From an uncultured Bdellovibrionales bacterium (GTDB lineage: Bacteria; Bdellovibrionota_C; UBA2361; SZUA-149; CAZDIO01), in assembly GCA_964505555.1 (NCBI GenBank), contig CAZDIO010000102.1, forward strand, positions 13,355 through 77,354: a stretch of DNA of 64,000 bases, given 5' to 3'. A program made the translations under genes and the position numbers. Numbering within the stretch: position 1 is the first letter of the stretch; every line of letters starts with the position of its first letter. The notes below the pieces were generated by a model. It did not search any database and was not told where the DNA came from. It worked only from the letters and a program-made list of their open reading frames with translations. This document shows positions 12,753-52,528 of the stretch, one piece after another.

Positions 12753-13727
12753 ATGCAACTAACGGGAAAAACAGTTCTTGTAACTGGTGGTGCAGGATTC
12801 ATTGGCAGTCATATCGTTGATGAATGCCTAAAGCGTGATGCAAAAAAAGTCATTGTGCTTGATAATTTTGTAATCGGCCACAATACCAATATTACCCATC
12901 TTGAGAATAATACTCGGGTGAAAATTGAAGCTGGGGATGTAAGAGATTTTGACTCTGTTTCTCCTCTTGTTCGCTCAGCTGACATTGTCTTTCATGAAGC
13001 AGCTTCCAAGCTTGTTGTTTCACGCACCCGACCTCGAATTGATCTGGAAACAAATGTAATCGGCACTTTCAATGTGCTTGAAGCCGCGCGGGGAAATAAT
13101 ACACTTATTGTTCACGCTTCTACAGGCTCTGTCCTAGGAAGCGGAGATGATGCAATGAAGGAGCAACACCCTCATAACCCAAGCACCCTTTATGGAATCA
13201 GTAAAAGCACAGCAGAACGGTACTGCCAATTCTATGCGCGCGAATTTGGGGTTCGAGTAGGAATCCTTCGTTACTTTCACGTTTTTGGCCCAAGACAAGA
13301 CTTCGATGGGGAGGCAGGCGTGGTAAGTATCTTTCTTGGTCGTGTACTTCGTAAAGAACCTCCAATTATCTTTGGAACTGGAGAGCAGATTAGATGCCTT
13401 ACTTTTGTAAAAGATGACGTGCAGGCTAATTTTTTACTGCTCAATGAACTTGCGAAAGGAAATTACCTTGGAGAAGTTTTTAATGTTGCCTCAAAAACAC
13501 GCATCGAAGTTGGTGAATTGGCCAAGATGATTATTAGCAAATATGGCCCGGTAAATATGAAACCACAATATGGTCCCTCTCGTCCGGGAGAAAATCTTCG
13601 TCCGATTCCAGATACAGCGAAGATTGAGAGCTTAGGTTTTCGTGAATCCGTAACTTTTGAGCAAGGGTTAGAACACACAAAACAGTGGGTAGAACAAAAA
13701 CTTCATCGGCCTACAGGTTCTTCATGA
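12753..13727 (+). CDS. NAD-dependent epimerase/dehydratase (extended SDR), sugar-nucleotide modifying
   Basis: 324 aa. VLVTGGAGFIGSH Rossmann motif and YxxxK (YGISKSTAE). Confidence 0.85.
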   Translation: MQLTGKTVLVTGGAGFIGSHIVDECLKRDAKKVIVLDNFVIGHNTNITHLENNTRVKIEAGDVRDFDSVSPLVRSADIVFHEAASKLVVSRTRPRIDLETNVIGTFNVLEAARGNNTLIVHASTGSVLGSGDDAMKEQHPHNPSTLYGISKSTAERYCQFYAREFGVRVGILRYFHVFGPRQDFDGEAGVVSIFLGRVLRKEPPIIFGTGEQIRCLTFVKDDVQANFLLLNELAKGNYLGEVFNVASKTRIEVGELAKMIISKYGPVNMKPQYGPSRPGENLRPIPDTAKIESLGFRESVTFEQGLEHTKQWVEQKLHRPTGSS

Positions 13728-27421: not shown

Positions 27422-29185
27422 GTGTCACTTCTTTACCGCGATCTTCGGAGCTTTCTCCAAGCACTTCAAAAAGAAAAGGTGCTTGTGGAGATTCATGCGC
27501 CAGTGGACCCACACTTAGAGCTTGCAGAAATTCATCGCAGAGTTATCGAACAAAACGGACCTGCTCTTTTATTTACTCAGGTAAAAGGAGGTCGTTATCC
27601 GGTTGTTACAAATCTCTTTGGAACAAAAAAACGGGTGGATCTCGCCTTTGGTCAAAACGGTCCTGCTCTTGTTCAGCAAGCCGTAGAGCTCGTATGGGAG
27701 CTTTTTCCCCCAAGCTACTCAGCACTTTGGGAGAAACGAAATCTGCTCAAACAATTCTTCTCTTTGGGCAGCGACTCAATTAAAAATGCTCCTGTCCTTG
27801 AGGTCCATGAAAGCCCGCCAATGTTATCTCAGCTCCCTCTTCTTACCACCTGGGAACAAGATGGTGGACCGTTTATAACACTCCCTCTCGTGTACACTGA
27901 GCACCCAGAGACTGGCATTTCAAATCTCGGCATCTATCGCATGCAGCGCTACGACGATCAAACCACCGGGATGCATATGCAGATCGGAAAAGGCGGGGGA
28001 TTTCATCTTGCCCGTGCAAAAGAGTTAGGGAAAAAACTCCCGGTGAATGTTTTTGTAGGAGGCGCCCCAGCAACAATTCTTGCCGCTATTGCTCCATTAC
28101 CTGAAAATATCCCAGAGATTCTCCTTGCCTCGTTTGTGCTTGGGGAAAAGCTTCGTGTTACAAAAAACCCTGCTGGTTCCCTACCCCTCTTTGCGGATGC
28201 GGAGTTTGCGCTTACAGGTTTTGTTGATCCTTTAGAAACTCTTCCAGAAGGACCATTTGGTGATCACTACGGGTATTATTCGCTCAAGCATGATTTCCCC
28301 GTATTTCGTTGCCAGTCAGTATTTCATCGAAAAGACGCGATCTATCCGGCAACCGTCGTTGGAAAACCACGACAGGAGGATTTTTTTATTGGCGATTACT
28401 TACAGGAACTCCTCGCCCCAATTTTTCCAATCGTCATGCCCACGATAAAAAATATCTGGAGTTACGGCGAAACCGGTTTTCATTCCCTTGCTGCTGCCGT
28501 AATTACAGAACGTTATAAGAGAGAAGCAATGGTCAGCGCTTTTCGAATCCTTGGAGAAGGTCAGTTGTCACTAACAAAGTTTCTCCTTCTTGTTGATCAA
28601 GCACTTGATTTAAAAGATTTCCGCTCTGTCTTTGAGCATGTTCTTGAACGAGCAGATTTTCGCTCCGATCTCTACGTATTTTCTCACACTTCGATGGATA
28701 CTCTTGATTATACCGGTCCAAGACTCAATGAAGGGAGTAAAGGGGTGCTCCTCGGAATTGGAAACCCAATTCGTTCACTCCCTGCTGAGTTTCATGAAAC
28801 ACCACCAAATGATATTGATGCCGTTTTTGTGTTTTGCCGGGGATGTCTTGTCATCAGTGGACCAAGCTACACTGCGGATAAAGATGCTCCCCAACGTCTT
28901 GCAAATCATCCCGCATTTTCAAAGTGGCCAATAATAGTCCTCTGCGATAACGCTGAATTTACTGCAAAAGAAAGTAGCTCATTTCTTTGGAGTACGTTTA
29001 CTCGATTTGAGCCCGCTTCAGATATCTATGCAAAGCAGGTATCTCTTCGAGCTTTACATCCAAGTTTTGAATCTCCGATCGTCATTGATTCGCGAATGAA
29101 GCCAAATTATCCTGAAGAACTTTTTTGTGATCCAAACACAAAAAAACTCGTCGACGATCGCTGGTCGGAATACTTTAAAAGCTAG
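27422..29185 (+). CDS. UbiD-family (prenylated-FMN dependent) decarboxylase-like protein
   Basis: 587 aa. The N-terminal region and the stretch ELGKKLPVNVFVGGAPATILAA are typical of UbiD/3-octaprenyl-4-hydroxybenzoate carboxy-lyase. Longer than canonical UbiD. Confidence 0.7.
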   Translation: MSLLYRDLRSFLQALQKEKVLVEIHAPVDPHLELAEIHRRVIEQNGPALLFTQVKGGRYPVVTNLFGTKKRVDLAFGQNGPALVQQAVELVWELFPPSYSALWEKRNLLKQFFSLGSDSIKNAPVLEVHESPPMLSQLPLLTTWEQDGGPFITLPLVYTEHPETGISNLGIYRMQRYDDQTTGMHMQIGKGGGFHLARAKELGKKLPVNVFVGGAPATILAAIAPLPENIPEILLASFVLGEKLRVTKNPAGSLPLFADAEFALTGFVDPLETLPEGPFGDHYGYYSLKHDFPVFRCQSVFHRKDAIYPATVVGKPRQEDFFIGDYLQELLAPIFPIVMPTIKNIWSYGETGFHSLAAAVITERYKREAMVSAFRILGEGQLSLTKFLLLVDQALDLKDFRSVFEHVLERADFRSDLYVFSHTSMDTLDYTGPRLNEGSKGVLLGIGNPIRSLPAEFHETPPNDIDAVFVFCRGCLVISGPSYTADKDAPQRLANHPAFSKWPIIVLCDNAEFTAKESSSFLWSTFTRFEPASDIYAKQVSLRALHPSFESPIVIDSRMKPNYPEELFCDPNTKKLVDDRWSEYFKS

Positions 29186-29233
29186 AACCATCCTACGGCC
29201 ATTAAATTAAGGATCTGAAAGAAAGATCTATAG

Positions 29234-29307
29234 AACCACAGAGACACAGAGCCGCAGAGAAGATTAATAAAATCCCTTTCCTCTGTGTCTCTGCGCCTCT
29301 GTGGTTT
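29234..29307. repeat. Family B palindromic repeat, copy B1 (arms built from CCACAGAG/ACACAGAG/CCGCAGAG 8-nt units, AT-rich loop)
   Basis: Seen directly: aaccacagagacacagagccgcagagaag...cctctgtgtctctgcgcctctgtggttt. Second copy at 63097-63190. Confidence 0.85.
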
Positions 29308-29350
29308 AATAAAGAATCTTTAACTTAATGGCCGTGAGAATCCTCCTAAC

Positions 29351-29430
29351 GTTAGCTGTAACAAGAACCCCGGTCGTTGCGAGCCGGGAAACCTCCGCTC
29401 GCAACGACAGGGGTTCTTGTTACAGCTAAA
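29351..29430. repeat. Family C palindromic repeat, copy C1 (perfect ~35-bp stem containing the cgttgcgagc/gctcgcaacg core)
   Basis: ttagctgtaacaagaaccccggtcgttgcgagc cgggaaacctcc gctcgcaacgacaggggttcttgttacagctaa. Core shared with 56134-56235 and 59726-59782. Confidence 0.85.
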
Positions 29431-29822
29431 GTGGAATTGCTTTTAGTGTTTAAAATCTTATCGTGAGGACGCGTTGACTAGTGCTAGAACAACTCGAATG
29501 TTTAATTGCCGTGCATCGCGTTTTCCATCTCTGTTGCAGTATGTTCCAGATCTTGATTTAACGATTGGCCAAAGTTTGCAACTCCTGCCAAACAAACAAG
29601 CAACACAGAAGCTGCAAGTAGCAGATACTCAAGTAACGATGCTCCACGCTCGTTTTTTCGAATGTTCAATACCATAACCTCTCCTTTCCGGTGGCTAACC
29701 CCCTTCCAGCCTTATTATGCACGCGAATGCCTAAGGAATTAATCGAGAAATTATGGGAAAATCTTTAGATAAACTTGAAATCTTTGAATTGAGAAAAATA
29801 CTTAACTTACTGAAATAACTAG

Positions 29823-30071
29823 TTAATTACTCCAGTACTGCCCACCCTTTTTAGTAACTCCCCGCCTAAACTGCCAATCTTTCCATGCAAAGGCGAGAAA
29901 AAACATCCCAGATACAATAAACAAACTAGCAACCATAGCCGCAAGAATCCGTGGAAACTCAAGGATCAGTAACCCAAGTGCCACAAAACAAATTCCGAGG
30001 GTGAAAAACATTGAAGTCAGCCCACCCCAAAAATTTGATGCTCTTTGAAAAAACACAACTTGTCGAAACAT
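29823..30071 (-). CDS. Small two-TM membrane protein (hypothetical)
   Basis: 82 aa, two hydrophobic helices. Confidence 0.35.
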   Translation of the reverse strand: MFRQVVFFQRASNFWGGLTSMFFTLGICFVALGLLILEFPRILAAMVASLFIVSGMFFLAFAWKDWQFRRGVTKKGGQYWSN

Positions 30072-30336
30072 CTTTTTATCTCTTACGTAATTAATCTATT
30101 TGAAGTCTGCTATCATCTCGTAAGCACCCCTTGGAAGATAAGGACGTAAGCCAACTTTGGCAAGAGCCGCACCAAGAAAAGCTCTCTTCTGAAGATAGCT
30201 GGGCAAACAGCATTTGATAAAAACTATCGTCAAATACGGTAAATCCGTCGCTACCCCTTCCTGTAGTAGCACTGGGTGTAGATAGAGATACTATCAAAAA
30301 GGGGGGTAAGTGTCATTCCTACCCTTTGGGAATAAC

Positions 30337-30376
30337 AAAGAGGCAGTGGGGTAGCGTTCTACCCTACTGCCTCTTT
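30337..30376. terminator. Strong hairpin (18-bp stem, tetraloop) immediately 3' of the flagellin gene, T-run on + strand
   Basis: aaagaggcagtggggtag cgtt ctaccctactgcctcttt followed by aatagtctttttt. One G·U wobble in the stem. Confidence 0.55.
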
Positions 30377-30395
30377 AATAGTCTTTTTTAATTGT

Positions 30396-31259
30396 CTACT
30401 GCAGCAACGTCAACGCCAAGGCTGGCTGTTGATTTGCTTGTGCTAATACTGAAGCACTTGCTTGCTGGAGAATATTTAGTCGCGTAAGTTCCGCCGCTTC
30501 GAACGCTACGTCAACGTCACGGATTCGACTTTCTGCAGCGAGGAAGTTTTCTCGAGCCACTTGCAAGTTACTAATCGCCACATTCAGCCGACTCTCGGTA
30601 GAACCCAATGTTCCTCGAGACGCTGTCAAACTTCCGATGGCGAGGTTAATAGCATCAAGAGCTGATCGTGCAGAGATCTGAGATTCATTCGCCGTTGCCG
30701 CCAAGATCGAAAACAACGGTATAGAACTCCCCTCAACTGCCAACCCAATTGATGCCAAGGTAGCAGAAACTGCAGAGTAGGATACCTGTGAGGTAGTCTG
30801 CCCATCAAACCCTACCTGAAACACCGTCTGTGCTCCTCCAGAGAGAAGGTTTACACCGTTAAATTCAGTTGTTAAGGCGATTCGCTCAATTTCGCTTGAG
30901 AGCGCGAGAAACTCTAAATGCAACGCAGAACGTTGGGTGTTACTAAATACACCGTTGGCTGATTGTTCAGCAAGCTCTGCAAGCCTTGTTAATACGTTTC
31001 CGATCTGCTCCATCGCACCGTCAGTAATGGAGATCATCGAAACACCATCGCTTGCGTTTCGTATGGCGACAGTAGCTACTCGAGAATCTGAACGCAGCTG
31101 ATCGGCGATCGCAAGTCCAGCAGCATCGTCTGATGCTTTGGTAATTCGCAAACCGGACGACAACCGCTCATAGGCTTTCTGTAAACGATCCGTTGTTGAA
31201 CTTAAGTTTCTCTGCGCAGTAAGCGAGGAAACGTTAGTCCGTATATTAATTGTACCCAT
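30396..31259 (-). CDS. fliC: Flagellin (short, D0/D1 only)
   Basis: 287 aa. N-terminus NVSSLTAQRNLSSTTDRLQKAYERLSSGLRITKASDDAAGLAIADQL and C-terminus LNILQQASASVLAQANQQPALALTLLQ match the conserved flagellin N- and C-domains. Confidence 0.9.
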   Translation of the reverse strand: MGTINIRTNVSSLTAQRNLSSTTDRLQKAYERLSSGLRITKASDDAAGLAIADQLRSDSRVATVAIRNASDGVSMISITDGAMEQIGNVLTRLAELAEQSANGVFSNTQRSALHLEFLALSSEIERIALTTEFNGVNLLSGGAQTVFQVGFDGQTTSQVSYSAVSATLASIGLAVEGSSIPLFSILAATANESQISARSALDAINLAIGSLTASRGTLGSTESRLNVAISNLQVARENFLAAESRIRDVDVAFEAAELTRLNILQQASASVLAQANQQPALALTLLQ

Positions 31260-31427
31260 TTCTTACCCTCCTTGACACCCTTACACCTCCTCCGAGACCT
31301 CTACTACAACCGATACTGCTCCTAGGAACTCGATCCGTATCCAGCACGGAGATAGGTTTCAGCACTTTTGTGCATGTTAACCAATAAAACGCTCAAGATA
31401 TGTATCGCTAAACTGCTCTGACCAAAC

Positions 31428-31446
31428 AGCTACTACCGTAAGACTA
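31428..31446 (-). promoter_or_regulatory. Candidate sigma-54 (-24/-12) promoter upstream of flagellin
   Basis: On the minus strand, cTGGCACgagaaGTGCTa (TGGCAC-N5-xTGC), about 185 nt upstream of the flagellin ATG. Confidence 0.3.
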
Positions 31447-31485
31447 CTCCTAGCACTTCTCGTGCCAGGTTTTGTGATCAGCGTC

Positions 31486-32490
31486 TTAGGCGATATTTTG
31501 AAATGGAGTTTCCCGTTTGAGTGCGGCTCGAAGTTCTGCAACACGCGTCACATAAGCCCGAGTACTCGCGGGTAAGTGCGGTTCGATGCTTTCAAAGTTT
31601 GTCGGATCTTTTCCTAAACGAAGTGCCTTCGCTTGTGCTTTTGCAACATTTCCTTCACCTGCGTTAAAGGCAGCGATGGCAAGTTTTTCCAAATCGTCGG
31701 CACTTTTAGCCGGCACGGTTTTTAATCCCGGTCTTAAAAATGTTTCTCGACTAAAAATGTCGTGGAGTTTTCGTAAATACCCCACTCCTAAGTGTGCATT
31801 GAGTCGGGGATCAAAGGGATCATAACCTGCAGGCATTTTGTAACGAACAAGCATCTCACTTGCGGTTTGATCCAGAAGCTGAAATAGCCCCTTTGTTTCA
31901 TGACCATCTTTACTCACCACATGTGGCCTCAGTGATGACTCTGCTTTCGCAACCGCAATACTTAGCTCAGGATCTACACCATGGTACTTCCCTGCTGTCT
32001 TAATAATCTCCTTTATATCCTGACGAGAGTAATCGCTATAAGGCTTAATACTTGCTCGATCTGGGTACACCCTCTTAGCGCTTACAAAAAGTGGGGTGAT
32101 CGGCTTTTCTACTTTTTCTACCGCTGATATTTTTTTGACACTCTCGCTCACCGGATTGACACGGAGCGAGGCATGAATAACCCCACTACTTCCACTTCCA
32201 GAAACTGCAGTAGCGTTCTTTATTAAGGGAGGAAGGTCTGCTTCAAGCATACCGTGCTCTTTGGTGTTAAGATTAGAAACTATCTCACCTGAAGGATTTA
32301 TGGAGGGTGTAGCTTGCTTTAAGTCTTCAGAAGGAGTTGATTTTGCAGCACGCTTTTCAATATCTGAAAGGAGCTCAGAGAAATCCTTCTGATTTGAGCC
32401 ATGGGTGGCCGTATCATTACCGGAGCGACCCCTTGGGGAGTCGATCCTGTTTTGATTTTTCTCGTAGCCTACATTAAATATCGTTGTCAT
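31486..32490 (-). CDS. Lytic transglycosylase (SLT domain) with Ser/Pro-rich N-terminal region
   Basis: 334 aa. C-terminal half has the SLT motifs (ES...; GLFQLLDQTA; AYNAG-like AIAAFNAGEGNV). Directly upstream of flagellin on the same strand. Confidence 0.75.
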   Translation of the reverse strand: MTTIFNVGYEKNQNRIDSPRGRSGNDTATHGSNQKDFSELLSDIEKRAAKSTPSEDLKQATPSINPSGEIVSNLNTKEHGMLEADLPPLIKNATAVSGSGSSGVIHASLRVNPVSESVKKISAVEKVEKPITPLFVSAKRVYPDRASIKPYSDYSRQDIKEIIKTAGKYHGVDPELSIAVAKAESSLRPHVVSKDGHETKGLFQLLDQTASEMLVRYKMPAGYDPFDPRLNAHLGVGYLRKLHDIFSRETFLRPGLKTVPAKSADDLEKLAIAAFNAGEGNVAKAQAKALRLGKDPTNFESIEPHLPASTRAYVTRVAELRAALKRETPFQNIA

Positions 32491-32578
32491 CTGAACTAAT
32501 CCTTCACACTACTAGTGGAGTATTAAAGGATAAGCACGATCCATACCAAACACTTCCTACTAAAAAAGGCAGTTTAAT

Positions 32579-33031
32579 ATGTCACATCACACAGCTGCGA
32601 TTTACTGGAAAAGAGCTACCCCCACATTTACCTACGATGCATATAACCGCGATCATGAGTGGCGCTTTGATAACGGAGTAAAAATAGCGGCATCAGCAAC
32701 CCAAGCCTATCGGGGTAATCCCGCTAACATCGATCCTGAAGAGGCGTATGTCGCCTCACTCTCAAGTTGCCACATGCTGACCTTCTTGGCGTTGTGTTCA
32801 AGAGCAAAGTTCGTTGTTGATACGTACGAAGACACCGCCGAAGGATTATTAGAAAAAAACGCCGCAGGAAAATTAGCGATCACCAAAGTTGTTTTGCGAC
32901 CAAAGATCACCTTTAGTGGAGACAAAGTTCCAAATAGTGCGGAACTAGAGAATCTCCATCACCGCTCCCATGAAGAGTGCTTCATTGCAAATTCCGTCAA
33001 CACAGTGGTGAGTGTTGAGGAGGCTAGCTAG
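32579..33031 (+). CDS. OsmC/Ohr-family peroxiredoxin-like protein
   Basis: 150 aa. Conserved Cys-containing segment YVASLSSCHMLTFLALCS. Confidence 0.6.
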   Translation: MSHHTAAIYWKRATPTFTYDAYNRDHEWRFDNGVKIAASATQAYRGNPANIDPEEAYVASLSSCHMLTFLALCSRAKFVVDTYEDTAEGLLEKNAAGKLAITKVVLRPKITFSGDKVPNSAELENLHHRSHEECFIANSVNTVVSVEEAS

Positions 33032-33063
33032 AGTTGCTCTACGTAACTTCTGGTCAATTTGGA

Positions 33064-33126
33064 TTGAACACAGAGTTTCACAGGGTTACACAGAGTAAAG
33101 ATTTTAAAATTCAACTCTGTGTTCAA
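33064..33126. repeat. Family A palindromic repeat, copy A1 (right arm shortened)
   Basis: ttgaacacagagtttcacagggttacacagagt aaagattttaaaattca actctgtgttcaa. The right arm lacks the internal gtaaccctgtgaaactct present in other copies. Confidence 0.8.
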
Positions 33127-33171
33127 ATAAGATCGGAATGACCTTAGAGCTACCTTCATATTTCTTATTCA

Positions 33172-33408
33172 TTATATCCACTCTTTCATCAGTCGTTTGA
33201 TCTGACTCTGATACGGCACATTTTGTAGATCACATTTATGCCGAAACGCAGCAAGAAGGGTCTGGGGAATTTTTATACTAATGAGTTTACTCTTTTCTGG
33301 CCGTTCATTCATGAGCCGAAAATCTTCAAGAAAACGTGCTATTTCATCCGGAGAGAGCTTCTTTGAATGATGAAGATACTCTTTAGAAAAAAACTGAACA
33401 CTTTTCAT
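33172..33408 (-). CDS. BrnA-like ribbon-helix-helix antitoxin-family protein
   Basis: 78 aa. C-terminus ISIKIPQTLLAAFRHKCDLQNVPYQSQIKRLMKEWI resembles the BrnA/CopG-type RHH antitoxin C-terminus. Confidence 0.55.
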   Translation of the reverse strand: MKSVQFFSKEYLHHSKKLSPDEIARFLEDFRLMNERPEKSKLISIKIPQTLLAAFRHKCDLQNVPYQSQIKRLMKEWI

Positions 33409-33414
33409 CTCTTC

Positions 33415-33882
33415 TTACTCTCTACTTAATTCTTGTAGCGCTTCAATATCGGCGAGATCTTGTGGTCGACCCGCTTCTTGTTTCATTCGAATAAGATCTG
33501 ACAATGAAAGAAGGGAGATACTTGTTTGCTGAACCCGAACACGTTTTGTTCTTTGGGTCGAAAGATCATGGGTAATAATGATGTCAACAAGCTCTGCTGG
33601 AGTACGCGGATTTACAAAACTCCATGCAGTAAGGTTTCGATTCTTAATGTACTCCTTTCGAAATTTAAACACCTCTTTGGCGGTGATCGGAAGCTTTGCT
33701 TGAAGGCCGATACTATTTAGCGCCGCTTCCGCCTTTATAAACTGCTCCTCTTCAAAACGAAGAATAATGTCAATGTCGAGCGTTCCTCGTACCGCCCCAT
33801 GAAGAGATACGGCATATCCACCAACAAGTGCATACTTAACGTGGTTCGTATCTAAGGCCTTAATAACGCTTAAAAGAAACAT
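33415..33882 (-). CDS. Nucleotidyltransferase-fold protein (Pol-beta superfamily), putative TA-system partner
   Basis: 155 aa. GGYAVSLHGAVRGTLDIDIIL (GS/GG...D.D NTase signature). 6-nt gap to the downstream RHH gene. Confidence 0.55.
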   Translation of the reverse strand: MFLLSVIKALDTNHVKYALVGGYAVSLHGAVRGTLDIDIILRFEEEQFIKAEAALNSIGLQAKLPITAKEVFKFRKEYIKNRNLTAWSFVNPRTPAELVDIIITHDLSTQRTKRVRVQQTSISLLSLSDLIRMKQEAGRPQDLADIEALQELSRE

Positions 33883-36657: not shown

Positions 36658-38235
36658 CTAAACGCTACGATTCCTTTCTCGTTTTCTTTTCCAAGTTTCA
36701 AAGTCTACTACCGCAATTTTTTTTGCAAGCTCCTCACGAACACATCCTTCAACCGCTTCATGAAGACTTCTTCGATCAAGAGCGGTTTTTAAGCAGTTCA
36801 TCTTCTTTTCAACCTGATCATAGAGGTTTGAAAGAGACTCAGAAGAGAGTGTTTTTCGATAGCGATCGACTTCGGTAGAGAGGTATTCCTGATACTCTTT
36901 TTTCTCAACTGGATTGGCCTCTCCCCGCCCGCTAGAGATTGGGGCTTTTGGAAAGTCCCGCCCAGTATTTTTAAGGATTTTCTCTTCAAAACTCCGGGGA
37001 ATAATGAATTTATGTGGAGTTTCTACTGCCCGATAGAGAAAACCTACCCGATTTTTTGAGACTTTCGTATCATTTGTTTGCACAAGAAAATCGTAATAGG
37101 AGATGATTTTATCAACTTGTAAAAGTTCTGCGGCGTTTTTTTCACTGAGCAGCCGTTTTGCTTGCGAGAGATGAATGCCTCGCGAAAGCAGAGCTTCAAT
37201 GGCTCCTTGTCGTTGTGATTCTAGATCAGTAGAACTGCGTTGGGAGGAATCTTTTTGAAAAACAGGGGGCGAAGAAAGGATAAAGCTTCCTTGCTGCGTG
37301 TGATTTCTAGGAAGAGGGCTCTCTGTTTGCTGGAGATGTTTTTGAGATACGATCTCTTTTCCGGAATGAAAGCGCACAACGGTCTCTACGCCCCTACCTG
37401 CAAACTCATAACTTGAGAGAAACCCAAGCGCTTTTAACTCCTCGCACGCTGGTTCAATTTGTTGCTTAATCTGGGAGATGTATTGATAACTTCGAGAAAG
37501 TCCTAACTTCTCAAAGGCAAAGGTAACAAGTGGTTTTTCAATACTTGATTTGTAGTAAAAATGCTTATCAAGATACCGGTAGAGCCTTCGACTTACAGCA
37601 CTTCGAAGTGAGAAATAAAGGGTTAAATCAAGCTTTTTTATAAACCCTGATTTAAAAGAATGAAAAAGTGCCTCACTCCAAATAAAATAACTCTTTGAAG
37701 CCTCAGCCCCAGAGAGGGCTTTGTTCCCTCGCCCATCGTTTATTTCGTAGGCATCGATAATTCCGAAATTTCTTGTTTGATAGGCTTTTGAAGCATTATC
37801 AAAAAACGCATTTGCTGCCCGAATTCGAACCCCGCTTAAGCGATCAAGTGATTTTGTAAGGCGGGAGTAGCTTCGCCCTTCTGTGGTCCAGCGTAAGATT
37901 CCTAAAAGCTCATACCGGGTAAAATATACCTTTCGGTTTCGAAACCCTTGATCCATCGTTAACCGCATCAAGCCAAGAAGGACATCATCATCCGTAGCGG
38001 TGGGGAGTCCAAACTTGTCTGCCCCGGTAATAATCCACTGGCGTTCAATCACCTCCCCACTGGGGAGCCGTTGGTTGTCACGAAACTCAAGGGTTTTTAC
38101 CTTTGAGTTTGTGCGTGTCGAGAGAACCGCGAGGGGAAACTCTGCAAGGTTCATCTCATCACGTGAGGTAAGCACTACCTCGGATGAGGAGACTTCACGA
38201 TCTTCGGCTCTTTGTTGGTAGAGGGTTTGCTGCAT
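36658..38235 (-). CDS. Replication-initiator-like (RepA-type) protein
   Basis: 525 aa. N-terminus MNLAEFPLAVLSTR... resembles plasmid replication initiator A family N-termini. Basic C-terminus. Lies next to an AT-rich noncoding region and parAB. Assignment tentative. Confidence 0.4.
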   Translation of the reverse strand: MQQTLYQQRAEDREVSSSEVVLTSRDEMNLAEFPLAVLSTRTNSKVKTLEFRDNQRLPSGEVIERQWIITGADKFGLPTATDDDVLLGLMRLTMDQGFRNRKVYFTRYELLGILRWTTEGRSYSRLTKSLDRLSGVRIRAANAFFDNASKAYQTRNFGIIDAYEINDGRGNKALSGAEASKSYFIWSEALFHSFKSGFIKKLDLTLYFSLRSAVSRRLYRYLDKHFYYKSSIEKPLVTFAFEKLGLSRSYQYISQIKQQIEPACEELKALGFLSSYEFAGRGVETVVRFHSGKEIVSQKHLQQTESPLPRNHTQQGSFILSSPPVFQKDSSQRSSTDLESQRQGAIEALLSRGIHLSQAKRLLSEKNAAELLQVDKIISYYDFLVQTNDTKVSKNRVGFLYRAVETPHKFIIPRSFEEKILKNTGRDFPKAPISSGRGEANPVEKKEYQEYLSTEVDRYRKTLSSESLSNLYDQVEKKMNCLKTALDRRSLHEAVEGCVREELAKKIAVVDFETWKRKRERNRSV

Positions 38236-39130
38236 GAAAAAAAATGAAACAAAAAAATTTTAAATTAACTTCAAGTCGTTTGTTATTTTGGTACAACGTA
38301 CATCATAGTTCTTCAACAAGAAGTTTTTTTATAAGTACGTACGTTAGGAGAGAAATTATTCAATCTTTCTAGTAAGTTAAGCCAGAAAATTTCTTTCGAT
38401 TCCCGAATCTTTTGGGCTCAGATCACGATGGACTTGAAGTCAATTCACTTGAGCACTTATCTCATTTCATGAGATTTTTATTCTCCTGCCTAACTTTCTT
38501 ACTTCGACTCTCGACATTGTGAAACCAAAAGCGCGAGATTTTTATGTAAGGCTCTCTGGAGCCTCTAACATGAGTCAGATAGCCAAACATTCCGGAGAAA
38601 ACGGTAGGTGGTCACGGTCATTAAGTTAGTTCCTGTCCATAAAAGCCAATTTTGAGTCCAAGGTCGATTGAACGGCCACTACTTCTAAACTTACTCTGTG
38701 GTTTTATAAAATCTTCTTTCAGACCCTTAATGACCGTGGGTAAGAAACTCTATTTTAGTAAAGTCTCTTAGTTCATTACTCGAACCCTTATTTCAATACA
38801 CGCCTATTTGACCATTTTTGGTTATTCCATTTCACGAACAGCAGCCAAACAAAAACCACAAGATATTCTAACATATTGAAATTATTAATATAATCAGATA
38901 TTCGTGGTTTAATTGACCTCCAAAGATCGCATTATTCTGGGAATGTTCGAGCTTCGAAATAAGTACTGATCACGTTTATAAGCGAGCTTTTGAAAGATGA
39001 TTATTTCAAAGCACGCTACTTTTTGGCCACTAGGTAGGTTTCTTTACTGTTTGGAAGCTTTAGTTTAAACCAGTTATTGTTTAATTTAACCTCTGCCAAA
39101 ATCTCAACTCTTGAGTAACGAAGCTGTAAG
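38236..39130. other. About 0.9 kb AT-rich noncoding region between the rep-like gene and parA; candidate replication origin / partition site region
   Basis: No ORF over 60 aa. A-tracts present. Contains a 15-bp inverted repeat (gtcacggtcattaag / cttaatgaccgtg about 100 nt apart) and short direct repeats (agatattc ×2). Confidence 0.3.
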
Positions 39131-39913
39131 GTGGCCATGGCAAAAGTCTTTGCAATAGTGAATCAAAAGGGGGGAGTTGGAAAAACTACCACCGCTGCAA
39201 ATTTGGCCGCCGCGCTATCTGAGCGAGGTCAAAAAGTGCTTGTTATTGATCTTGATGCTCAAGCAAATCTCTCTGCTCATTTTGGAAGTTCCGTAGATGA
39301 TCAGAGTGAGCAGCTTACAATGTATGATGTGCTCAGGCACAACGCCCCGATTGAAAAAGCAATAATAAACCTCTCTTCGAACTTAAGTATCGTTCCTGCA
39401 AGCCTCCTACTAAGTGCTGCAGATTTAGAGCTTGGTGGTGTTATCGGTCGTGAGTTACTTCTTAAAAAAGCTCTTCAACCGGTAATTGATGACTATGATT
39501 ACACGATCATTGATTGCCCACCCTCACTGGGGATGCTCTCCCTCAATGGGCTTGTTGCTGCTTCACGAGTTATCGTTCCTGTTCAAAGTGAGTTTTTAGC
39601 CCTTCACGGCGTAAGGCAGCTTCTTGATACGATTGACCAGGTACGAAGTGCCTACAACCCCTTACTTGCTGTGGGTGGAGTTCTTCTCTGTCTTCATGAT
39701 TCAAGAAGGAGACTGGCGCGGAGTGTTGCCGATACGGTGCGCGAATATTTTGGAGATCTTGTTTTTGAAACTGTCATTCGCACAAACGTTGCCCTTGCTG
39801 AAGCACCTGCCCAGGGGGACTCAATTTTTCAATACGACCGCCGCTCAAGCGGTGCTGAAGATTATGCTAGCCTTGCAGAGGAGATACTAAGCCGTGGCAA
39901 AAAAGAAGGTTAA
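39131..39913 (+). CDS. parA: ParA/Soj-family partition ATPase
   Basis: 260 aa. Deviant Walker A NQKGGVGKTTT. Confidence 0.9.
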   Translation: MAMAKVFAIVNQKGGVGKTTTAANLAAALSERGQKVLVIDLDAQANLSAHFGSSVDDQSEQLTMYDVLRHNAPIEKAIINLSSNLSIVPASLLLSAADLELGGVIGRELLLKKALQPVIDDYDYTIIDCPPSLGMLSLNGLVAASRVIVPVQSEFLALHGVRQLLDTIDQVRSAYNPLLAVGGVLLCLHDSRRRLARSVADTVREYFGDLVFETVIRTNVALAEAPAQGDSIFQYDRRSSGAEDYASLAEEILSRGKKEG

Positions 39914-40814
39914 ATTCAGTGTAAACCCACTTCTTGGGGGACCAAGTCTTGCATCACGAGCAAAGATGGGGAGCCCTTATCGGGAGCTTTTAATCGACGA
40001 GATCGATTTTGATCCTGATCAACCGCGACGAGTATTTAATGAAGAGCGACTTCAAGAGCTCGCTGATTCAATTAAAGAACACGGAATCATCTCACCAATA
40101 CTTGTTAAAGTAACAGAAGGGGGAACCTATAAGCTTGTATCTGGAGAGAGAAGACTTCGTGCCTCAAAAATTGCTGGATTAGAATCGATCCCCGCAGTTA
40201 TTGAAGACGATGATAAAAGTAGTGATGTAACCCTTCCTAAGCAGCTTGTAGAAAATCTCCAACGAGAAGATCTCACCGTAATGGAGAGGGCGATCGCTAT
40301 TGGCCAACTACGAGATGCTTACAAATTGAGCATTCGTGAGATCTCCTCAAAGCTTTCCATTTCAAAAGGACTCGTTCAGAGAAGCCTTGAAGTTCTCGAT
40401 CTCCCAGACGATCTTCAAGCAGCGTTAATAAACGGTGCCTCAGAGACGAAGATTCTCGTTTTAGCGAAAGTTTCGAATCGTGAATTGAGAAAAGAATTTA
40501 TCGCTCAACTTGATAATTTCACCCGAGCACAACTTGAAGAAGAGGTAGATCGGGTTACGACACTCTTAAATGGCGACAAAGAAGAGGTGTACCACGGTGG
40601 TACACCTCGTAGTCGAAAAAATGGAAGAAATAAACTTTCCCCTCAAGATGAGCAGTTAATTAATGATTTAAAAAACAAACTAGGAACAAGAGTTTCTTTA
40701 ATGCGCAGTCGTGGCAAAGAGGGGCAGGGGAAGCTGATGATCGAGTTCTATTCAGATAACGATCTAAGCGAGATCTTTCGACGACTTTGTCGAACCGCTA
40801 GCGATTCTCTTTAA
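39894..40814 (+). CDS. parB: ParB/Spo0J-family partition protein (GTG start)
   Basis: 306 aa. ParB box ISPILVK...YKLVSGERRLRAS. 20-nt overlap with parA. Confidence 0.85.
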   Translation: MAKKKVKFSVNPLLGGPSLASRAKMGSPYRELLIDEIDFDPDQPRRVFNEERLQELADSIKEHGIISPILVKVTEGGTYKLVSGERRLRASKIAGLESIPAVIEDDDKSSDVTLPKQLVENLQREDLTVMERAIAIGQLRDAYKLSIREISSKLSISKGLVQRSLEVLDLPDDLQAALINGASETKILVLAKVSNRELRKEFIAQLDNFTRAQLEEEVDRVTTLLNGDKEEVYHGGTPRSRKNGRNKLSPQDEQLINDLKNKLGTRVSLMRSRGKEGQGKLMIEFYSDNDLSEIFRRLCRTASDSL

Positions 40815-46482: not shown

Positions 46483-47196
46483 GTGGTGAAAGGGACAACG
46501 GAAAAATTAACTGAAGAGCAGATTCCCCTCGTAATTGAAAATATTCTTTATGCAAAAAAACTGGCGAGGCAGTTTTATCAACAACGAAGCCACTTCGGTT
46601 TCGATGTTGAGGATTTTGAAGGCGCAGCATTGTTTGGATTATGTGACGCTGCAAGGAGGTTTGAGCCTGATAAGACACTTCATTTTAGAACATTTTCCTA
46701 TTTTCGCATTCGGGGTGCGATGTATGATCTGCTGCGACATGGGGGGGGAATTTCGAAGAAACACTTCAAGTGTTTCATTGAAAATCGAAATCAAACGGGA
46801 GAGGGGACAAAACCTCGAGCAGAGGAAGAAGGGAGCCTCCCCTATTCATTTGCAAGAACTGCTGAGGAGTTATCGAGCATTATTGCCACGATTGAAGAGA
46901 TCGATATCGCTGTGCATGTCAGCACGGACAGCGAGATTCCTGAACTCAGCTACGCACGAGACCTAAATCCTGAAGAGATCAATACCATTCGTGCAACCCG
47001 GTCCTATATTAGAAAACTTATCTCTCAACTTCCCACTGAACAACGAACCGTAATTGAACTTCGCTACTACAATGGCGCTACCTTTGATGAAATTAGCGCA
47101 AATCTCGGTGGGCACTCACGGAGTTGGGTTTCACGAACCCATGTTCGAGCTCTTGATAATTTGCGAGGGATGATTCTTAGCGAAAGGAGAGTGTAA
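46483..47196 (+). CDS. Sigma-70-family sigma factor, FliA/sigma-28-like
   Basis: 237 aa. Region 2 (FEGAALFGLCDAARRFEPDKTLHFRTFSYFRIRGAMYD) and region 4 HTH (VIELRYYNGATFDEISANLGGHSRSWVSRTHVRALDNLR). RBS AAGGAGGA. Stop overlaps the sctJ start (TAATG). Confidence 0.8.
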   Translation: MVKGTTEKLTEEQIPLVIENILYAKKLARQFYQQRSHFGFDVEDFEGAALFGLCDAARRFEPDKTLHFRTFSYFRIRGAMYDLLRHGGGISKKHFKCFIENRNQTGEGTKPRAEEEGSLPYSFARTAEELSSIIATIEEIDIAVHVSTDSEIPELSYARDLNPEEINTIRATRSYIRKLISQLPTEQRTVIELRYYNGATFDEISANLGGHSRSWVSRTHVRALDNLRGMILSERRV

Positions 47197-48131
47197 TGAC
47201 ATCCTCAAAATGGAAAGGAATTTTTCTTGCGCTCGTAGCGTTTTTTCAGGTCAGTTGTAAAGAGACCGTTCTTCATAACTTAGATGAGGTGCGAGCCAAT
47301 CAGGTAAAAGTAACACTAGAGAAACGAGGAATTACTGCGCAAAAGCTTTTTGAAGGGAGCGGATGGAGTATTCGAGTCAAGCGTGCTGACGAAACAGAGG
47401 CACTCTCGATTCTTGAAGAAAGCAGAGTTCTCAAACGGAATCTCCGAACCCCGATAGAACCACCAAAGGGGCTTATTCCAAGCCGAGAGGAACGAGCATC
47501 ATTTTCAGAACGGCAACTGGCGGCAAGTTTAGAAAGTACTCTTGAGCGCTTACCCTATGTGCTAGAAGCTCGAGTTCATCTGAACTTAAATGCCGAAGAG
47601 AACCTTCAAATGGTTTTGCCAAAAGAGGGCCATACGGGAAGTGCTCTGATTGTCACCGATGATCATATGCCTGATCATTTAGCAATTCAAAAATCTCAAG
47701 TACAACAACTCATTGCAGGAGCATCAGGAGTAAACCCACAATCAATCTCGGTAGTAATCGCCAAAGCAAGTGCTGAAAACTACGCAGAGCCACAGATCCA
47801 TAAAGTAGCAAAGCCAGTAGAGACGACGAAAAAAGATACTCCCTCCCATTCTCCATCGTGGATAAAAAAGCTGATAGTGCATGCTCGACAGTATCAAACA
47901 TTTTTAATCTATCTCGCTGGGGTATTAATTGCAGTTCTTGCACTCCGATTGATTTTTCGAAAAAACCCATTTCGAAGTGAGCAAACAATACCGAGTTTTC
48001 AAATGCCTCCTCTGAAGAACTCAAAAAATACCGTCTCCTCTGGTGTTCTGGTCAACGGTACCCAACACGGAAATGGCAGTCAGTTTAAACTGCAACCAAA
48101 CAAACAACATGAAACATTGGAGGTGTACTAA
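47196..48131 (+). CDS. sctJ: Type III secretion inner-membrane ring lipoprotein SctJ (YscJ/PrgK/CdsJ family)
   Basis: 311 aa. Signal plus Cys (FFQVSCKE), then LDEVRANQVKVTLEKRGITAQKL...ETEALSILEESRV (YscJ-like secretin/ring-building motif pair). Single C-terminal TM (FLIYLAGVLIAVLALRLIF). Confidence 0.75.
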   Translation: MTSSKWKGIFLALVAFFQVSCKETVLHNLDEVRANQVKVTLEKRGITAQKLFEGSGWSIRVKRADETEALSILEESRVLKRNLRTPIEPPKGLIPSREERASFSERQLAASLESTLERLPYVLEARVHLNLNAEENLQMVLPKEGHTGSALIVTDDHMPDHLAIQKSQVQQLIAGASGVNPQSISVVIAKASAENYAEPQIHKVAKPVETTKKDTPSHSPSWIKKLIVHARQYQTFLIYLAGVLIAVLALRLIFRKNPFRSEQTIPSFQMPPLKNSKNTVSSGVLVNGTQHGNGSQFKLQPNKQHETLEVY

Positions 48132-48132
48132 G

Positions 48133-48408
48133 ATGATGGCTTCTTCTTTAAATATCCATTGCTCACGGCGATGTGAATTGCTTCTCTGCTTAAGTTATCT
48201 CCTTACCCCAGAAGCAGTTACTTCCATCGCCTCAAAATTAGCAACCAATCGCGATCAAGCCGCGAGAAACCTTGCTCAGGCGATGATGTCACTCTCTCCT
48301 CAGTATGTACGAGACCTGAGTTTAAAAACACTTGCCAATGCCGGAATGAGTATCGGTAATTATAAAAACCAAACGCATGCTCACGGGGTAGCCTCGAGGA
48401 AGTTGTAA
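48133..48408 (+). CDS. Small T3SS-locus protein (hypothetical)
   Basis: 91 aa from ATG immediately after the sctJ stop. The longer ORF from 48043 overlaps sctJ. No motif. Confidence 0.3.
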   Translation: MMASSLNIHCSRRCELLLCLSYLLTPEAVTSIASKLATNRDQAARNLAQAMMSLSPQYVRDLSLKTLANAGMSIGNYKNQTHAHGVASRKL

Positions 48409-48409
48409 A

Positions 48410-49333
48410 ATGAAAGAGAACGACAACAATACGTTTGTTGCTGTAATCAGAGCAAAACTTCAAGCAGGGGGGCGCACTCTCGCATCAACGGAAAATGCAC
48501 CACTGCATACACTACGATTTCGGATGATGGCAAATCAATTTCTCTCTATTCTTTCTTCGTTACTTTCTTTACATCTTACAAAGGAAGTTCATATCTCACT
48601 TGATGAGTCATCAACCTTTCCTCGATCACCTGAAGAGGGGTGCGATGGAGAACAGGTGATCGTGAATCTTCGAGTGTATCATCAAAATATACAACTTGTT
48701 TTACCCGGAGAGCTTGTTCATGACCTTGGTGCTTACGTCCTTCATAAGATGCCAACAGCGGTAATCTCTTCTCTCACGAACGAAGAGATTACCGCTGTGA
48801 GTTTCTTAATCGCTTCAGTCCTTGCTGATCGAGCGCTCTCGAAACAACGAATCTACCTCTCTTCAGTGCACAAAAAATGTAACGAAGAAAAACAAGAGAC
48901 CTCAAAACGCGATCGAGAACAAAATCAGCAACTCTGTGTATCAGCCACGGTTGATAAGAGTCACTACCGAGTGCTCGTACGTATCCCCGAGGAGCTTGTT
49001 GGGCGTTTAGAAAGTTATGGGAAATTAATCTTTCATAGGGAACAAACAACACGTCTTCTTTCAAGGGTGTTTGCGCAGTGGTCGCTGCAACTTCGACTCA
49101 ACGTAGGATCGCTTCACGGTCTTACTGCGCTAAAAGAAGGTCAACGTTTTCCACTTACAGAGTCTACGGGGGCACTTTTTTCTCCAAGCCCTCTCTGTGG
49201 TGAAGAAGGGGTAGCGGTTGAAATACTTTCTGCAAGTATTCCTGGACTTTTAAAATTACGAATTAGGGGAGAAAAAGATTTATATCAACGCACTCAATGG
49301 AGGAATAATGACCAGAGAAGATGCCCACAGTAA
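48410..49333 (+). CDS. sctQ: SctQ-like protein, N-terminal part of a split cytoplasmic-ring/sorting-platform protein (contains a SpoA-like C-terminal segment)
   Basis: 307 aa. C-terminal LQLRLNVGSLHGLTALKEGQRFPL...VAVEILSASIPGLLKLRI fits the SpoA/FliN-fold pattern. Overlaps the next SpoA gene by 26 nt. Confidence 0.45.
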   Translation: MKENDNNTFVAVIRAKLQAGGRTLASTENAPLHTLRFRMMANQFLSILSSLLSLHLTKEVHISLDESSTFPRSPEEGCDGEQVIVNLRVYHQNIQLVLPGELVHDLGAYVLHKMPTAVISSLTNEEITAVSFLIASVLADRALSKQRIYLSSVHKKCNEEKQETSKRDREQNQQLCVSATVDKSHYRVLVRIPEELVGRLESYGKLIFHREQTTRLLSRVFAQWSLQLRLNVGSLHGLTALKEGQRFPLTESTGALFSPSPLCGEEGVAVEILSASIPGLLKLRIRGEKDLYQRTQWRNNDQRRCPQ

Positions 49334-49673
49334 TGAATTGTTTAGAGAATTTACAAATCACCATACCCAGACGATGAACCAAAATGGGGAATCGGCTCGT
49401 GAAATAAAGCGAGAAAGCGGCTCATTGCTTACATTGCAGCAAGCAAAATTTCTTTCAGAGATACAGGTTGGGCTTGATGTCGAGATCGGAAAACTCTCCA
49501 TCCCAGCAGATAAACTCATTGATCTCCTTCCTGGGCAAACATTTGAGTTTGAGTTTGATCCGCTTCTAGAGGTTTCGCTCTCACTGGGAGGAGAAAAGAT
49601 AGCAAAAGCTAAATTCATGCTTGATGGAGAGACGCTCTATCTTGAAGTGAGCTCAGTAAAAACCACTTTATGA
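49308..49673 (+). CDS. SpoA/FliN/SctQ-C domain protein (separate C-terminal SctQ gene)
   Basis: 121 aa. VGLDVEIGKLSIPADKLIDLLPGQTFEFEFDPLLEVSLSLGGEKIAKAKFMLDGETLYLEV is the classic SpoA domain. Confidence 0.7.
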   Translation: MTREDAHSNELFREFTNHHTQTMNQNGESAREIKRESGSLLTLQQAKFLSEIQVGLDVEIGKLSIPADKLIDLLPGQTFEFEFDPLLEVSLSLGGEKIAKAKFMLDGETLYLEVSSVKTTL

Positions 49674-49768
49674 CAAAACCGATCGGAAACCATTGATGGA
49701 AATAAACGATAATACGTACGAGACCTAAAAACTGTTGTGAATTAATTGAATTAATAAGGAGAAATAAC

Positions 49769-50071
49769 ATGTCAGATGTAGCCTCGGCGCTTTTTAATAT
49801 CGGAAGTGTTGTGCGTGAAACCGCAAGTTACTTACCAGAACCTGCAACGCAAGGCGTTAGTATGTTTTCTGACGTTATGGATATCGTAAAAAGCCTCACC
49901 GGTAATGGTGTTGGTGGAGTTCCTACCGAGATCGGCGGGGACTTTATGGAACTTCTTGAATTGCAGATTCAAACTCAGCTTGAGCTTCAGACGGTATCAA
50001 TGGTGTCAAACGTTGAGAAGTCTGAACACGAATCAAAGATGGCTGCGATTCGAAACGTTCGCGTAAACTAA
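49769..50071 (+). CDS. Small T3SS-associated protein, needle/inner-rod (SctF/SctI)-like candidate
   Basis: 100 aa, helical. C-terminus ...KMAAIRNVRVN. Position between sctQ and sctV. RBS AAGGAGA. Confidence 0.3.
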   Translation: MSDVASALFNIGSVVRETASYLPEPATQGVSMFSDVMDIVKSLTGNGVGGVPTEIGGDFMELLELQIQTQLELQTVSMVSNVEKSEHESKMAAIRNVRVN

Positions 50072-50099
50072 AACAAGAAAATTAGATTGGAGAAATACT

Positions 50100-50417
50100 A
50101 TGGCCGTATCAAGTGTAACCACCGCTGCACCTCAAACAGCCGAAGGAAAAGCAGCAAAGAGTGAAGGTGAAGATAAAAAGGAGCGCACCTCTCAGGTGAA
50201 CCAATGGGGAAAAGAGATCCTTGATTTAAAAACCTCAAATGCGCGTCTTCTTGAGATCGTTGAAGCAGCAACAAAAGAGGCAAATGATAGCCCCTGGGTG
50301 ATGAACATGATTGAAAAGTTCATCGGTCAACGGGCGGTAAAGGGTGCCGCTGTTTCAAACATGATTCAAGCAATCATGGAAACGATGAAACGAATCGCTA
50401 ATAATATTGGGCGTTAG
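50100..50417 (+). CDS. Small T3SS-associated protein, needle/inner-rod (SctF/SctI)-like candidate
   Basis: 105 aa. C-terminus VSNMIQAIMETMKRIANNIGR resembles needle-family C-termini (…IIQNFR-like). RBS GGAGAAA. Confidence 0.3.
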   Translation: MAVSSVTTAAPQTAEGKAAKSEGEDKKERTSQVNQWGKEILDLKTSNARLLEIVEAATKEANDSPWVMNMIEKFIGQRAVKGAAVSNMIQAIMETMKRIANNIGR

Positions 50418-50428
50418 TTTCTGATTCC

Positions 50429-52507: not shown

Positions 52508-52528
52508 TCTTAGCGCGCTGTATGGGAG

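Follow-up and report, generated by a model that had tools for sequence, protein, structure and literature searches.

What is a flagellin gene doing far from any other flagellar gene, and why is it preceded by the gene of a peptidoglycan-cleaving enzyme? These questions are raised by 64,000 nucleotides of contig CAZDIO010000102.1 from an uncultured Bdellovibrionales bacterium (hereafter the window, meaning the whole stretch analyzed; GC content 40-47%). On its minus strand the window carries a gene for an SLT-domain lytic transglycosylase (31486..32490, hereafter the SLT protein) and, downstream of it, the flagellin gene fliC (30396..31259). We think that in this uncultured Bdellovibrionota bacterium the two genes probably form a flagellar module, in which each has its own sigma-54 promoter and the SLT protein is exported in the manner of FlgJ. 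Read in this way, the feature flagged by an initial annotation of the window is a genuine, functional motility module and not a relic or an injectisome-linked oddity.

A short flagellin gene paired with a lytic transglycosylase gene

The fliC product has 287 amino acids and covers the full profile length of both Flagellin_N (PF00669, residues 6-142, E 1.7e-39, 135.5 bits) and Flagellin_C (PF00700, residues 201-286, E 5.8e-22, 78.3 bits). As just ~58 residues separate the two domains, the protein is a flagellin with D0/D1 only. This had been proposed in the initial annotation and is borne out by the Pfam matches and by solved short filament flagellins of 270-304 amino acids (9lah, 9oxk and B. 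subtilis Hag 5wjt), which align with the fliC product from end to end. Its best NCBIfam matches are short flagellins, every one of them scoring below the species-specific cut-off. Thousands of flagellins of 285-288 amino acids are 68-86% identical to it, their named sources being metagenome-assembled genomes (MAGs) labelled Bdellovibrionales, Bdellovibrionota or 'Deltaproteobacteria', and the identical protein is also found on Logan contigs of 1-3 kb. The NCBI contig with the window, on which the protein is encoded as well, has 81,020 bp; its reads are in SRR13076506 and SRR13076517.

We compared six orthologues for the ratio of non-synonymous to synonymous substitution (dN/dS). For fliC, the proportions of differing sites are 0.13-0.22 (non-synonymous, pN) and 0.66-0.84 (synonymous, pS, at or near saturation), giving a dN/dS of ~0.1 or less, and the purifying selection spans the full length of the protein, both D0 termini included. 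This pattern indicates that the flagellin is maintained as a functional protein by strong purifying selection. The SLT gene has a dN/dS of ~0.2-0.3.

In Bdellovibrio bacteriovorus and Bacteriovorax marinus, the flagellins are short and their genes lie at scattered loci away from the basal-body genes. Six fliC genes are reported in B. bacteriovorus and five in Bacteriovorax marinus (PMC3526173, citing Lambert et al. 2006). That the flagellin gene stands alone is thus not unusual, multiple dispersed short fliC genes being normal for Bdellovibrio-like organisms (PMC3526173). The flagellin described here resembles FliC1-6 of B. bacteriovorus and the FliC proteins of Bacteriovorax marinus, as these are short, come several to a genome and belong to the same phylum. 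It differs from those of the cultured Bdellovibrio and Bacteriovorax in its partner, from an SLT protein family that is met, among the matches listed, only in uncultured lineages.

The upstream ORF (open reading frame), on the same strand as fliC as noted at the outset, encodes 334 amino acids with a match to the Pfam domain SLT (PF01464) at residues 162-292 (E 2e-18, 66.5 bits). In an alignment of 60 homologues, on which all motif and hydropathy counts for this protein are based, the catalytic E184-S185 is invariant and the GLFQL and AAFNAGEG motifs are conserved. The AlphaFold2 model has a confidence score (pLDDT) above 90 in most 10-residue blocks of residues 161-320, with lower values around 181-200, and both Foldseek (probability 1.00) and sequence profiles match this C-terminal domain to MltF, MltC, MltE and Slt70. 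The motifs and the predicted fold identify the SLT protein as a family-1 lytic transglycosylase. Disorder is predicted for most of its N-terminal ~150 residues, which contain no Pfam domain, and the best NCBIfam match of the whole protein is BB0259_flg_lyt, with 35.8 bits against a cut-off of 234. We found 279 homologues at E <=1e-10, from MAGs of uncultured Bdellovibrionota, 'Oligoflexia' or 'Deltaproteobacteria'; no name of a cultured organism occurs in the best 120 of these 279 matches. Among 185,579 species genomes, close matches are confined to six Bdellovibrionota-type MAGs, three of which have broader names.

In every locus examined, fliC has the SLT gene as its immediate upstream neighbour, in the same orientation. 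The sample comprised seven looked-up flagellin homologues (73-84% identical) and six loci reached via the SLT protein; the loci are given L numbers here. The nearest loci in the species-representative genome collection are those of Bdellovibrionota-type MAGs, with SLT proteins 42-54% identical. Three kinds of neighbourhood were found. In the window and in L003, L004, L006, L008, L009, L012, L087 and L091, the pair is zero to a few genes away from a plasmid-type initiator gene (Pfam RPA). In L089 and L090, it is located between a che operon (cheA/W/R/D/Y/X/B and genes for methyl-accepting chemotaxis proteins) and flhB-flhA-flhG-like-fliA, and L093 and L094 have a third kind of context. A second fliC in tandem is present in L012, L091 and L093. 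A search for FlhA gave no link to contigs with the pair beyond L089's own. Because the pairing survives these rearrangements of the neighbourhood, the SLT gene and fliC are likely to be functionally linked, and the association of the SLT gene with the flagellin gene is stronger than had been supposed.

Taken together, selection on the flagellin, the tandem duplications and the che/flh context of L089 show that this protein is part of a functioning flagellar system in the group. The suggestion that it might be a relic is contradicted by the low dN/dS, by the tandem duplicates in relatives and by the position of the pair beside che/flh genes in L089/L090.

We scanned nearly all window ORFs of at least 110 amino acids that are not nested in a larger ORF against Pfam and NCBIfam. 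The earlier statement that no other flagellar genes occur in the 64 kb is strictly correct, as the scan found only a divergent type III secretion-like cluster (46483-53146). It comprises genes for a FliA/WhiG-like sigma factor, an SctJ-like lipoprotein, two unknown ORFs, an SctQ/FliN-like protein, two small unknown ORFs, an SctV-like FHIPEP protein and a TPR protein. All family scores are below the NCBIfam cut-offs: 84 bits versus 190 for the sigma factor, 77 versus 162 for the SctJ-like protein and 28 versus 101 for the SctQ-like protein. The FHIPEP protein scores 513 bits with SctV (cut-off 692), slightly above its 475 bits with FlhA. The small remaining ORFs have no family match, and no genes for the ATPase, the secretin or SctRSTU were found in the window. 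The injectisome reported earlier for this genome is therefore borne out in part: SctJ-, SctQ- and SctV-like genes exist, but all are sub-cut-off and are accompanied in the window by none of these further components. The flagellins of the window and of L089 share 73% identity, but the FHIPEP protein has only 32% identity to FlhA of L089, which makes it a paralogue and not the gate of the flagellum. The sigma factor and FliA of L089 share 23% identity. Judged by these comparisons, the type III secretion-like genes at 46.5-53.1 kb form a divergent cluster of paralogues and do not encode the flagellar export gate.

Promoters, leader and terminator

A sigma-54-type (-24/-12) motif, TGGCACGAGAAGTGCT, is located at 31452..31467 on the minus strand, where a TGGCAC-N5-GTGCT motif ~185 nt upstream of fliC had been annotated. 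It begins 18 nt past the SLT stop codon, and its -12 GC (31453-31454) lies 194 nt before the fliC ATG. The 64 kb contain no other match to TGGCAC-N5-KTGCW; the chance expectation is 0.07, and a match was seen in 7 of 100 shuffled sequences. To compare loci, GG-N10-GC motifs were scored at 11 positions against TGGCACG....TTGC in the regions before fliC of 14 loci. TGGCACGAGAAGTGCT scores 10/11, with GG at -24, GC at -12 and the exact 10-nt spacing. A motif with a score of at least 8/11 is present upstream of fliC in all 14 loci, 126-283 nt from the ATG, and scores 10/11 in nine of them. The background, determined on both strands of the window and of nine of the loci, is 0.07 per 250 nt for scores of at least 8 and 0.0046 for scores of at least 10; the score-10 sites in the data set are mostly these promoters. 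When the SLT-fliC spacers of the four closest loci are aligned, just two blocks are conserved: TGGCAYG-N4-RTGCT immediately past the SLT stop codon and the ribosome-binding site GTCAAGGAGGGT. The rest of the spacer is not alignable.

The window scan revealed a second motif of this type, TGGTATGGATCGTGCT, at 32533..32548 on the minus strand, 44 nt upstream of the SLT start codon (GC at 32534-32535). Among the 11 related loci with a defined SLT start, every one has such a motif, typically TGGTATG-N4-NTGCT, 27-58 nt before that start. Very probably, then, fliC and the SLT gene are both transcribed by the sigma-54 holoenzyme, and the candidate promoter of the initial annotation, with its -24/-12 element kept in 14 of 14 loci amid a diverged spacer, is very probably real. 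Both promoters would presumably require an activator of the NtrC/FlrC/FlgR type. In L087, a gene for an NtrC-type sigma-54 activator (receiver, Sigma54_activat and HTH_8 domains) is found ~5 kb from the SLT-fliC pair; in the Pfam/NCBIfam scan, no window ORF has a Sigma54_activat domain. The sigma factor gene rpoN is present in the cultured Bdellovibrio and Bacteriovorax (PMC3464611, PMC3526173).

The alternative of a sigma-28 promoter, which the initial annotation had also considered, finds no counterpart upstream of fliC. We searched 241 nt upstream of the gene for TAAA-N14-16-GCCGATAA; the best match has 9 of 12 positions, shares bases with the SLT stop codon and has no equivalent in relatives, and the candidate sigma-28 (FliA) promoter TAAA-N15-GCCGATAA was rejected as not conserved. 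Sigma-70-like matches in the region number four, with 5.0 expected by chance.

Two further observations concern the motif scan. In L089, a score-10 sigma-54 motif, GGGCACGTAAGTTGCT, is present at 13504-13519 (plus strand), 66 nt upstream of flhB, which suggests for this group, of which L089 represents a sister lineage, that the flhBA-flhG-fliA operon is also sigma-54-dependent. Matches with scores of 8 to 10 in the 3' end of fliC (30403-30418 in the window; position 10842 in L003) are false positives that arise from the conserved LALTLL codons.

Several flagellins of other bacteria, including Vibrio cholerae FlaA, FlaB of Campylobacter and Helicobacter, and Caulobacter FljK/L, are made from sigma-54-dependent promoters, independently of FliA. 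The FlaA of Shewanella putrefaciens is likewise a sigma-54-dependent, FliA-independent flagellin (PMC6299084). The fliC of the window resembles them in having its own -24/-12 promoter and no sigma-28 promoter, and presumably in being expressed with the middle-class (basal-body and hook) genes in an organism with several flagellins. By analogy with the flagellins of Vibrio, Shewanella, Campylobacter and Caulobacter, the protein would probably be made in this 'middle' class. The present case differs from Shewanella FlaA and the others in that the promoter is known from sequence alone, in its leader of ~180 nt, and in the constant partnership of fliC with a lytic transglycosylase gene, which those models do not show. 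The promoter footprints imply that sigma-54 drives at least some of the flagellar hierarchy (fliC, SLT and flhB) in this uncultured Bdellovibrionota group, as it does in gamma- and epsilon-proteobacteria with polar flagella. A short search of the literature gave no published description of sigma-54 flagellar control in the phylum.

From the promoter position, fliC is predicted to have a 5' leader of ~182 nt (31260..31441, minus strand). The Shine-Dalgarno sequence read from it, AAGGAGGG, is located at 31266..31273 on the same strand, within the conserved GTCAAGGAGGGT context. Across the 14 loci, the distance from the promoter motif to the ATG corresponds to leaders of 123-281 nt. TCAAGGA at the ribosome-binding site is shared by 6 of the 14 orthologous leaders (0.18 expected), and AAGGAT, further upstream in the leader, by 7 of 14 (1.2 expected), both counts being inflated by shared ancestry. 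The same inflation applies to the hexamer AGTAGT (core AGTAG), which recurs in most loci in the first part of the leader, ~5 to 65 nt past the promoter motif (+5 to +65), and is present in 7 of the 14 leaders (1.0 expected). The predicted fold of the fliC leader is unremarkable (z = -0.6). A riboswitch or structured leader was dismissed, as an Rfam scan of 29000-33200 gave only sub-threshold matches of miRNA models on hairpins. In B. subtilis, hag is subject to CsrA/FliW-type translational control through GGA motifs, and in Vibrio the FlrC activator site of flaA lies downstream of the transcription start. The GGA motifs of the leader are compatible with control of the CsrA/FliW type, which we offer as a suggestion from the sequence and the hag analogy; alternatively, the long leader could possibly hold an activator site downstream of the start, as in flaA.

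At the other end of fliC, a terminator scan and RNA folding identified a tandem intrinsic terminator (30296..30376, minus strand). The first hairpin (30337-30376) has an 18-bp stem and begins 19 nt past the fliC stop codon, in agreement with the strong hairpin annotated ~20 nt downstream of the gene; a second hairpin (30304-30324), followed by a T-run, lies beyond it. Their joint fold has -41.5 kcal/mol (z = -7.3), a value equalled by none of 200 shuffled sequences. The second gene of the module would thus be a minimal D0/D1 flagellin gene with its own sigma-54 promoter, a ~180-nt leader and a strong terminator at its end.

Export of the lytic transglycosylase and alternative explanations

The start codon of the SLT gene is fixed by the conservation of the MTSIF N-terminus and by the position of the promoter. 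None of the 60 homologues has a hydrophobic segment in the first 150 amino acids (highest 10-residue Kyte-Doolittle mean 1.87, median 1.2), so the SLT protein lacks a membrane anchor as well as any Sec, Tat or lipoprotein signal. The N-terminus is nonetheless patterned. Residues 1-5 read M-[TS]-[ST]-[IV]-[FY] in 58 of 60 homologues, [IV][FY] being residues 4-5; R15 is conserved, as is the aromatic or hydrophobic character of positions 9, 13 and 16. Further on, a Phe is invariant at residue 31-44 (mode 37), with x-x-[VLI]-L after it in 58 of 60. The divergent SLT proteins of L089, L091 and L093 keep the same N-terminal layout.

The early flagellar subunits of Salmonella carry two export signals, a hydrophobic N-terminus (2-SIAV-5 in FlgD) and a gate-recognition motif of the form F-x-x-x-hydrophobic (36-FLTLL-40 in FlgD), separated by at least 19 and ideally ~24 or more residues (PMC8983047). 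As a sequence pattern, the N-terminus of the SLT protein has the layout of these rod/hook-type signals of flagellar type III export. We lean slightly towards the view that the SLT protein is exported as an early substrate by the flagellar type III system and opens the peptidoglycan for the rod, as FlgJ does. In this mechanism, the protein would pass the flagellar export gate and cut peptidoglycan where the rod passes, which is the job of the C-terminal domain of Salmonella FlgJ and also that of the Sec-exported SltF and BB0259.

Dual-domain FlgJ of Salmonella and other beta/gamma-proteobacteria is of similar size and has the same construction, a disordered N-terminal half of ~150 amino acids and a C-terminal peptidoglycan-cleaving domain. 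It too lacks a Sec signal, and the N-terminal motifs of the SLT protein match rod/hook-type export signals (PMC8983047). The two differ in their catalytic domains, a family-1 lytic transglycosylase here and a GH73 glucosaminidase in FlgJ, as well as in the lack of PF10135 homology in the SLT protein and in the location of its gene beside fliC instead of in the flg rod operon. Membership in the FlgJ family was rejected, there being no Rod-binding match and only weak Glucosaminidase matches (best E 0.011) in 3 of 60 homologues. A separate lytic enzyme with a single-domain FlgJ is the rule in delta/epsilon-proteobacteria and spirochaetes, and the Sec signals of BB0259 and SltF are essential for their function (PMC8517470). 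With SltF of Rhodobacter sphaeroides and BB0259 of Borrelia burgdorferi, whose lineages have a single-domain FlgJ, the present protein shares the character of a flagellum-associated SLT-domain enzyme (PMC8517470). Unlike SltF, BB0259 and PleA, however, the family described here lacks a Sec or lipoprotein signal in 60 of 60 homologues.

More tentatively, and with rather less confidence than in the export itself, the SLT protein might represent an undescribed class: a signal-less lytic transglycosylase that passes through the flagellar gate, does the enzymatic job of FlgJ without kinship to it and is fixed beside an 'early' flagellin. If so, this would be a third solution for the crossing of the cell wall by the rod, beside dual-domain FlgJ and the Sec-exported SltF/BB0259. 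In a bolder extension, the SLT protein may be secreted outward through the flagellar apparatus onto the cell walls of prey. The flagellin, its promoter class and the intrinsic terminator are of known kinds, mostly textbook. The modest new elements are an SLT-fliC module that is invariable and has two sigma-54 promoters, in an uncultured Bdellovibrionota clade, and a flagellum-linked lytic transglycosylase without a Sec signal that has rod/hook-type export motifs.

Several points weigh against the reading as a sigma-54-driven module with a FlgJ-like exported enzyme. The export signal is a short motif that could serve another protein interaction, and a permissive Pfam scan (E <=1) found Rod-binding (PF10135) in none of the 60 SLT homologues. 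No activator binding site was identified near the promoters. The SLT-fliC interval has no terminator, so read-through transcription may contribute to fliC expression. In B. bacteriovorus, most attack-phase genes are reportedly under FliA (PMC11209729), so that sigma-28 control of the flagellins might have been expected. The window, as the part of the genome covered, gives no direct evidence for rpoN, an activator, basal-body genes or flgJ.

Alternatively, the SLT protein could be one of the many enzymes with which Bdellovibrio-like predators modify peptidoglycan: a general or predation-related wall enzyme that has no flagellar role and has in common with fliC only its regulatory class and the ancestral location of its gene. 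Its nearest folds are those of the housekeeping MltF, MltC and MltE, and its sole match to a flagellum-specific family, BB0259_flg_lyt, is weak (35.8 versus 234 bits). We nevertheless regard a general enzyme as unlikely: the pairing with fliC is kept in three unrelated contexts and at flagellin divergence down to 68% identity, both genes have retained separate sigma-54 promoters, and the Sec or lipoprotein signal carried by housekeeping and predatory periplasmic enzymes is missing. It is less likely still that the sigma-54 motif is not the working promoter of fliC, with transcription coming instead by read-through from the SLT gene or from a promoter in the spacer, of the sigma-28 or sigma-70 type, that escaped recognition. 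The missing terminator between the genes, the 123-281 nt of spacer past the motif, which leave room for another promoter, and the role of FliA in attack-phase B. bacteriovorus (PMC11209729) would all allow this, but the best sigma-28 match (9/12) is absent from relatives, sigma-70-like matches are not above chance (4 versus 5.0 expected), and the -24/-12 element is the only conserved block besides the ribosome-binding site.

We consider it very improbable that the organism has no true flagellum and that its flagellin is a relic or the cargo of the type III secretion-like system encoded at a distance of 15 kb. Such a view could draw on the lack of basal-body, hook or motor genes in the window and on the SctJ/SctQ/SctV-like cluster with its FliA-like sigma factor gene at 46.5-53.1 kb. 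It is opposed by the strong purifying selection along the whole flagellin, including both D0 termini, by the tandem fliC duplicates in relatives and by the sister lineage that has the same pair inside a che/flhBA/fliA cluster. The FHIPEP protein of the window, a paralogue as judged from its 32% identity to L089 FlhA versus 73% between the flagellins, also speaks against it. A sigma-54-driven flagellar module with an exported lytic transglycosylase is thus the reading that we prefer.

Neighbouring genes and other features of the window

Downstream of fliC, the minus strand encodes an 82-amino-acid membrane protein (29823-30071) and a Flp/Fap pilin-like ORF of 57 amino acids (29502-29675; Pfam E 1.6e-5, below the cut-off). 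Both are also found a few kb downstream of fliC in L003 and L004. A candidate third sigma-54 promoter before the membrane protein gene (30159-30174) is absent in L003 and weak in L004, and was discarded as a chance match. Between ubiD and the flp-like gene, there are two near-perfect hairpins of ~80-90 nt (29226-29316 and 29344-29436). These have only sub-threshold matches to miRNA precursor models and could be terminators or repeat elements.

Upstream of the SLT gene, the window contains an RPA gene (PF10134, a plasmid-type replication initiator; 36658-38235, minus strand) and, divergent from it, parA-parB (39131-40814, plus strand). The spacer of ~900 bp between them (38236-39130) includes the lowest GC content of the region (0.376 at 38.5-39.0 kb), and the 2-kb GC skew changes sign there. 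No clear iterons were found at the block, which is flanked by the housekeeping genes icd, hemB, hemD, ubiD and a polyprenyl synthase gene. It also adjoins SLT-fliC in L003, L004, L006, L008 (on a contig of 1.87 Mb), L009, L012, L087 and L091. The RPA/parAB block has the look of a replication origin with a RepA-type initiator, belonging to a large replicon that would be a chromosome or a chromid.

A polysaccharide gene island occupies 1781-26904. It encodes three DegT-type aminotransferases, a hexapeptide acyltransferase, a GFO/IDH oxidoreductase, an epimerase/dehydratase, a split transketolase, several glycosyltransferases, a Wzy-like polymerase and a flippase-type protein, as well as PMT_2 and DUF2142 membrane proteins and a sulfatase. 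The island probably serves the synthesis of O-antigen or exopolysaccharide. A role in flagellin glycosylation was considered and rejected, as no Maf or Pse genes were seen and the Wzy-like, flippase and PMT_2 proteins fit O-antigen or exopolysaccharide synthesis.

Finally, a possible toxin-antitoxin pair is encoded at 33172-33882 on the minus strand, between an OsmC-like gene and an unknown ORF of 294 amino acids. It consists of a DUF6036 nucleotidyltransferase (155 amino acids) and a CopG-antitoxin-like protein (78 amino acids, with a sub-threshold Pfam match).

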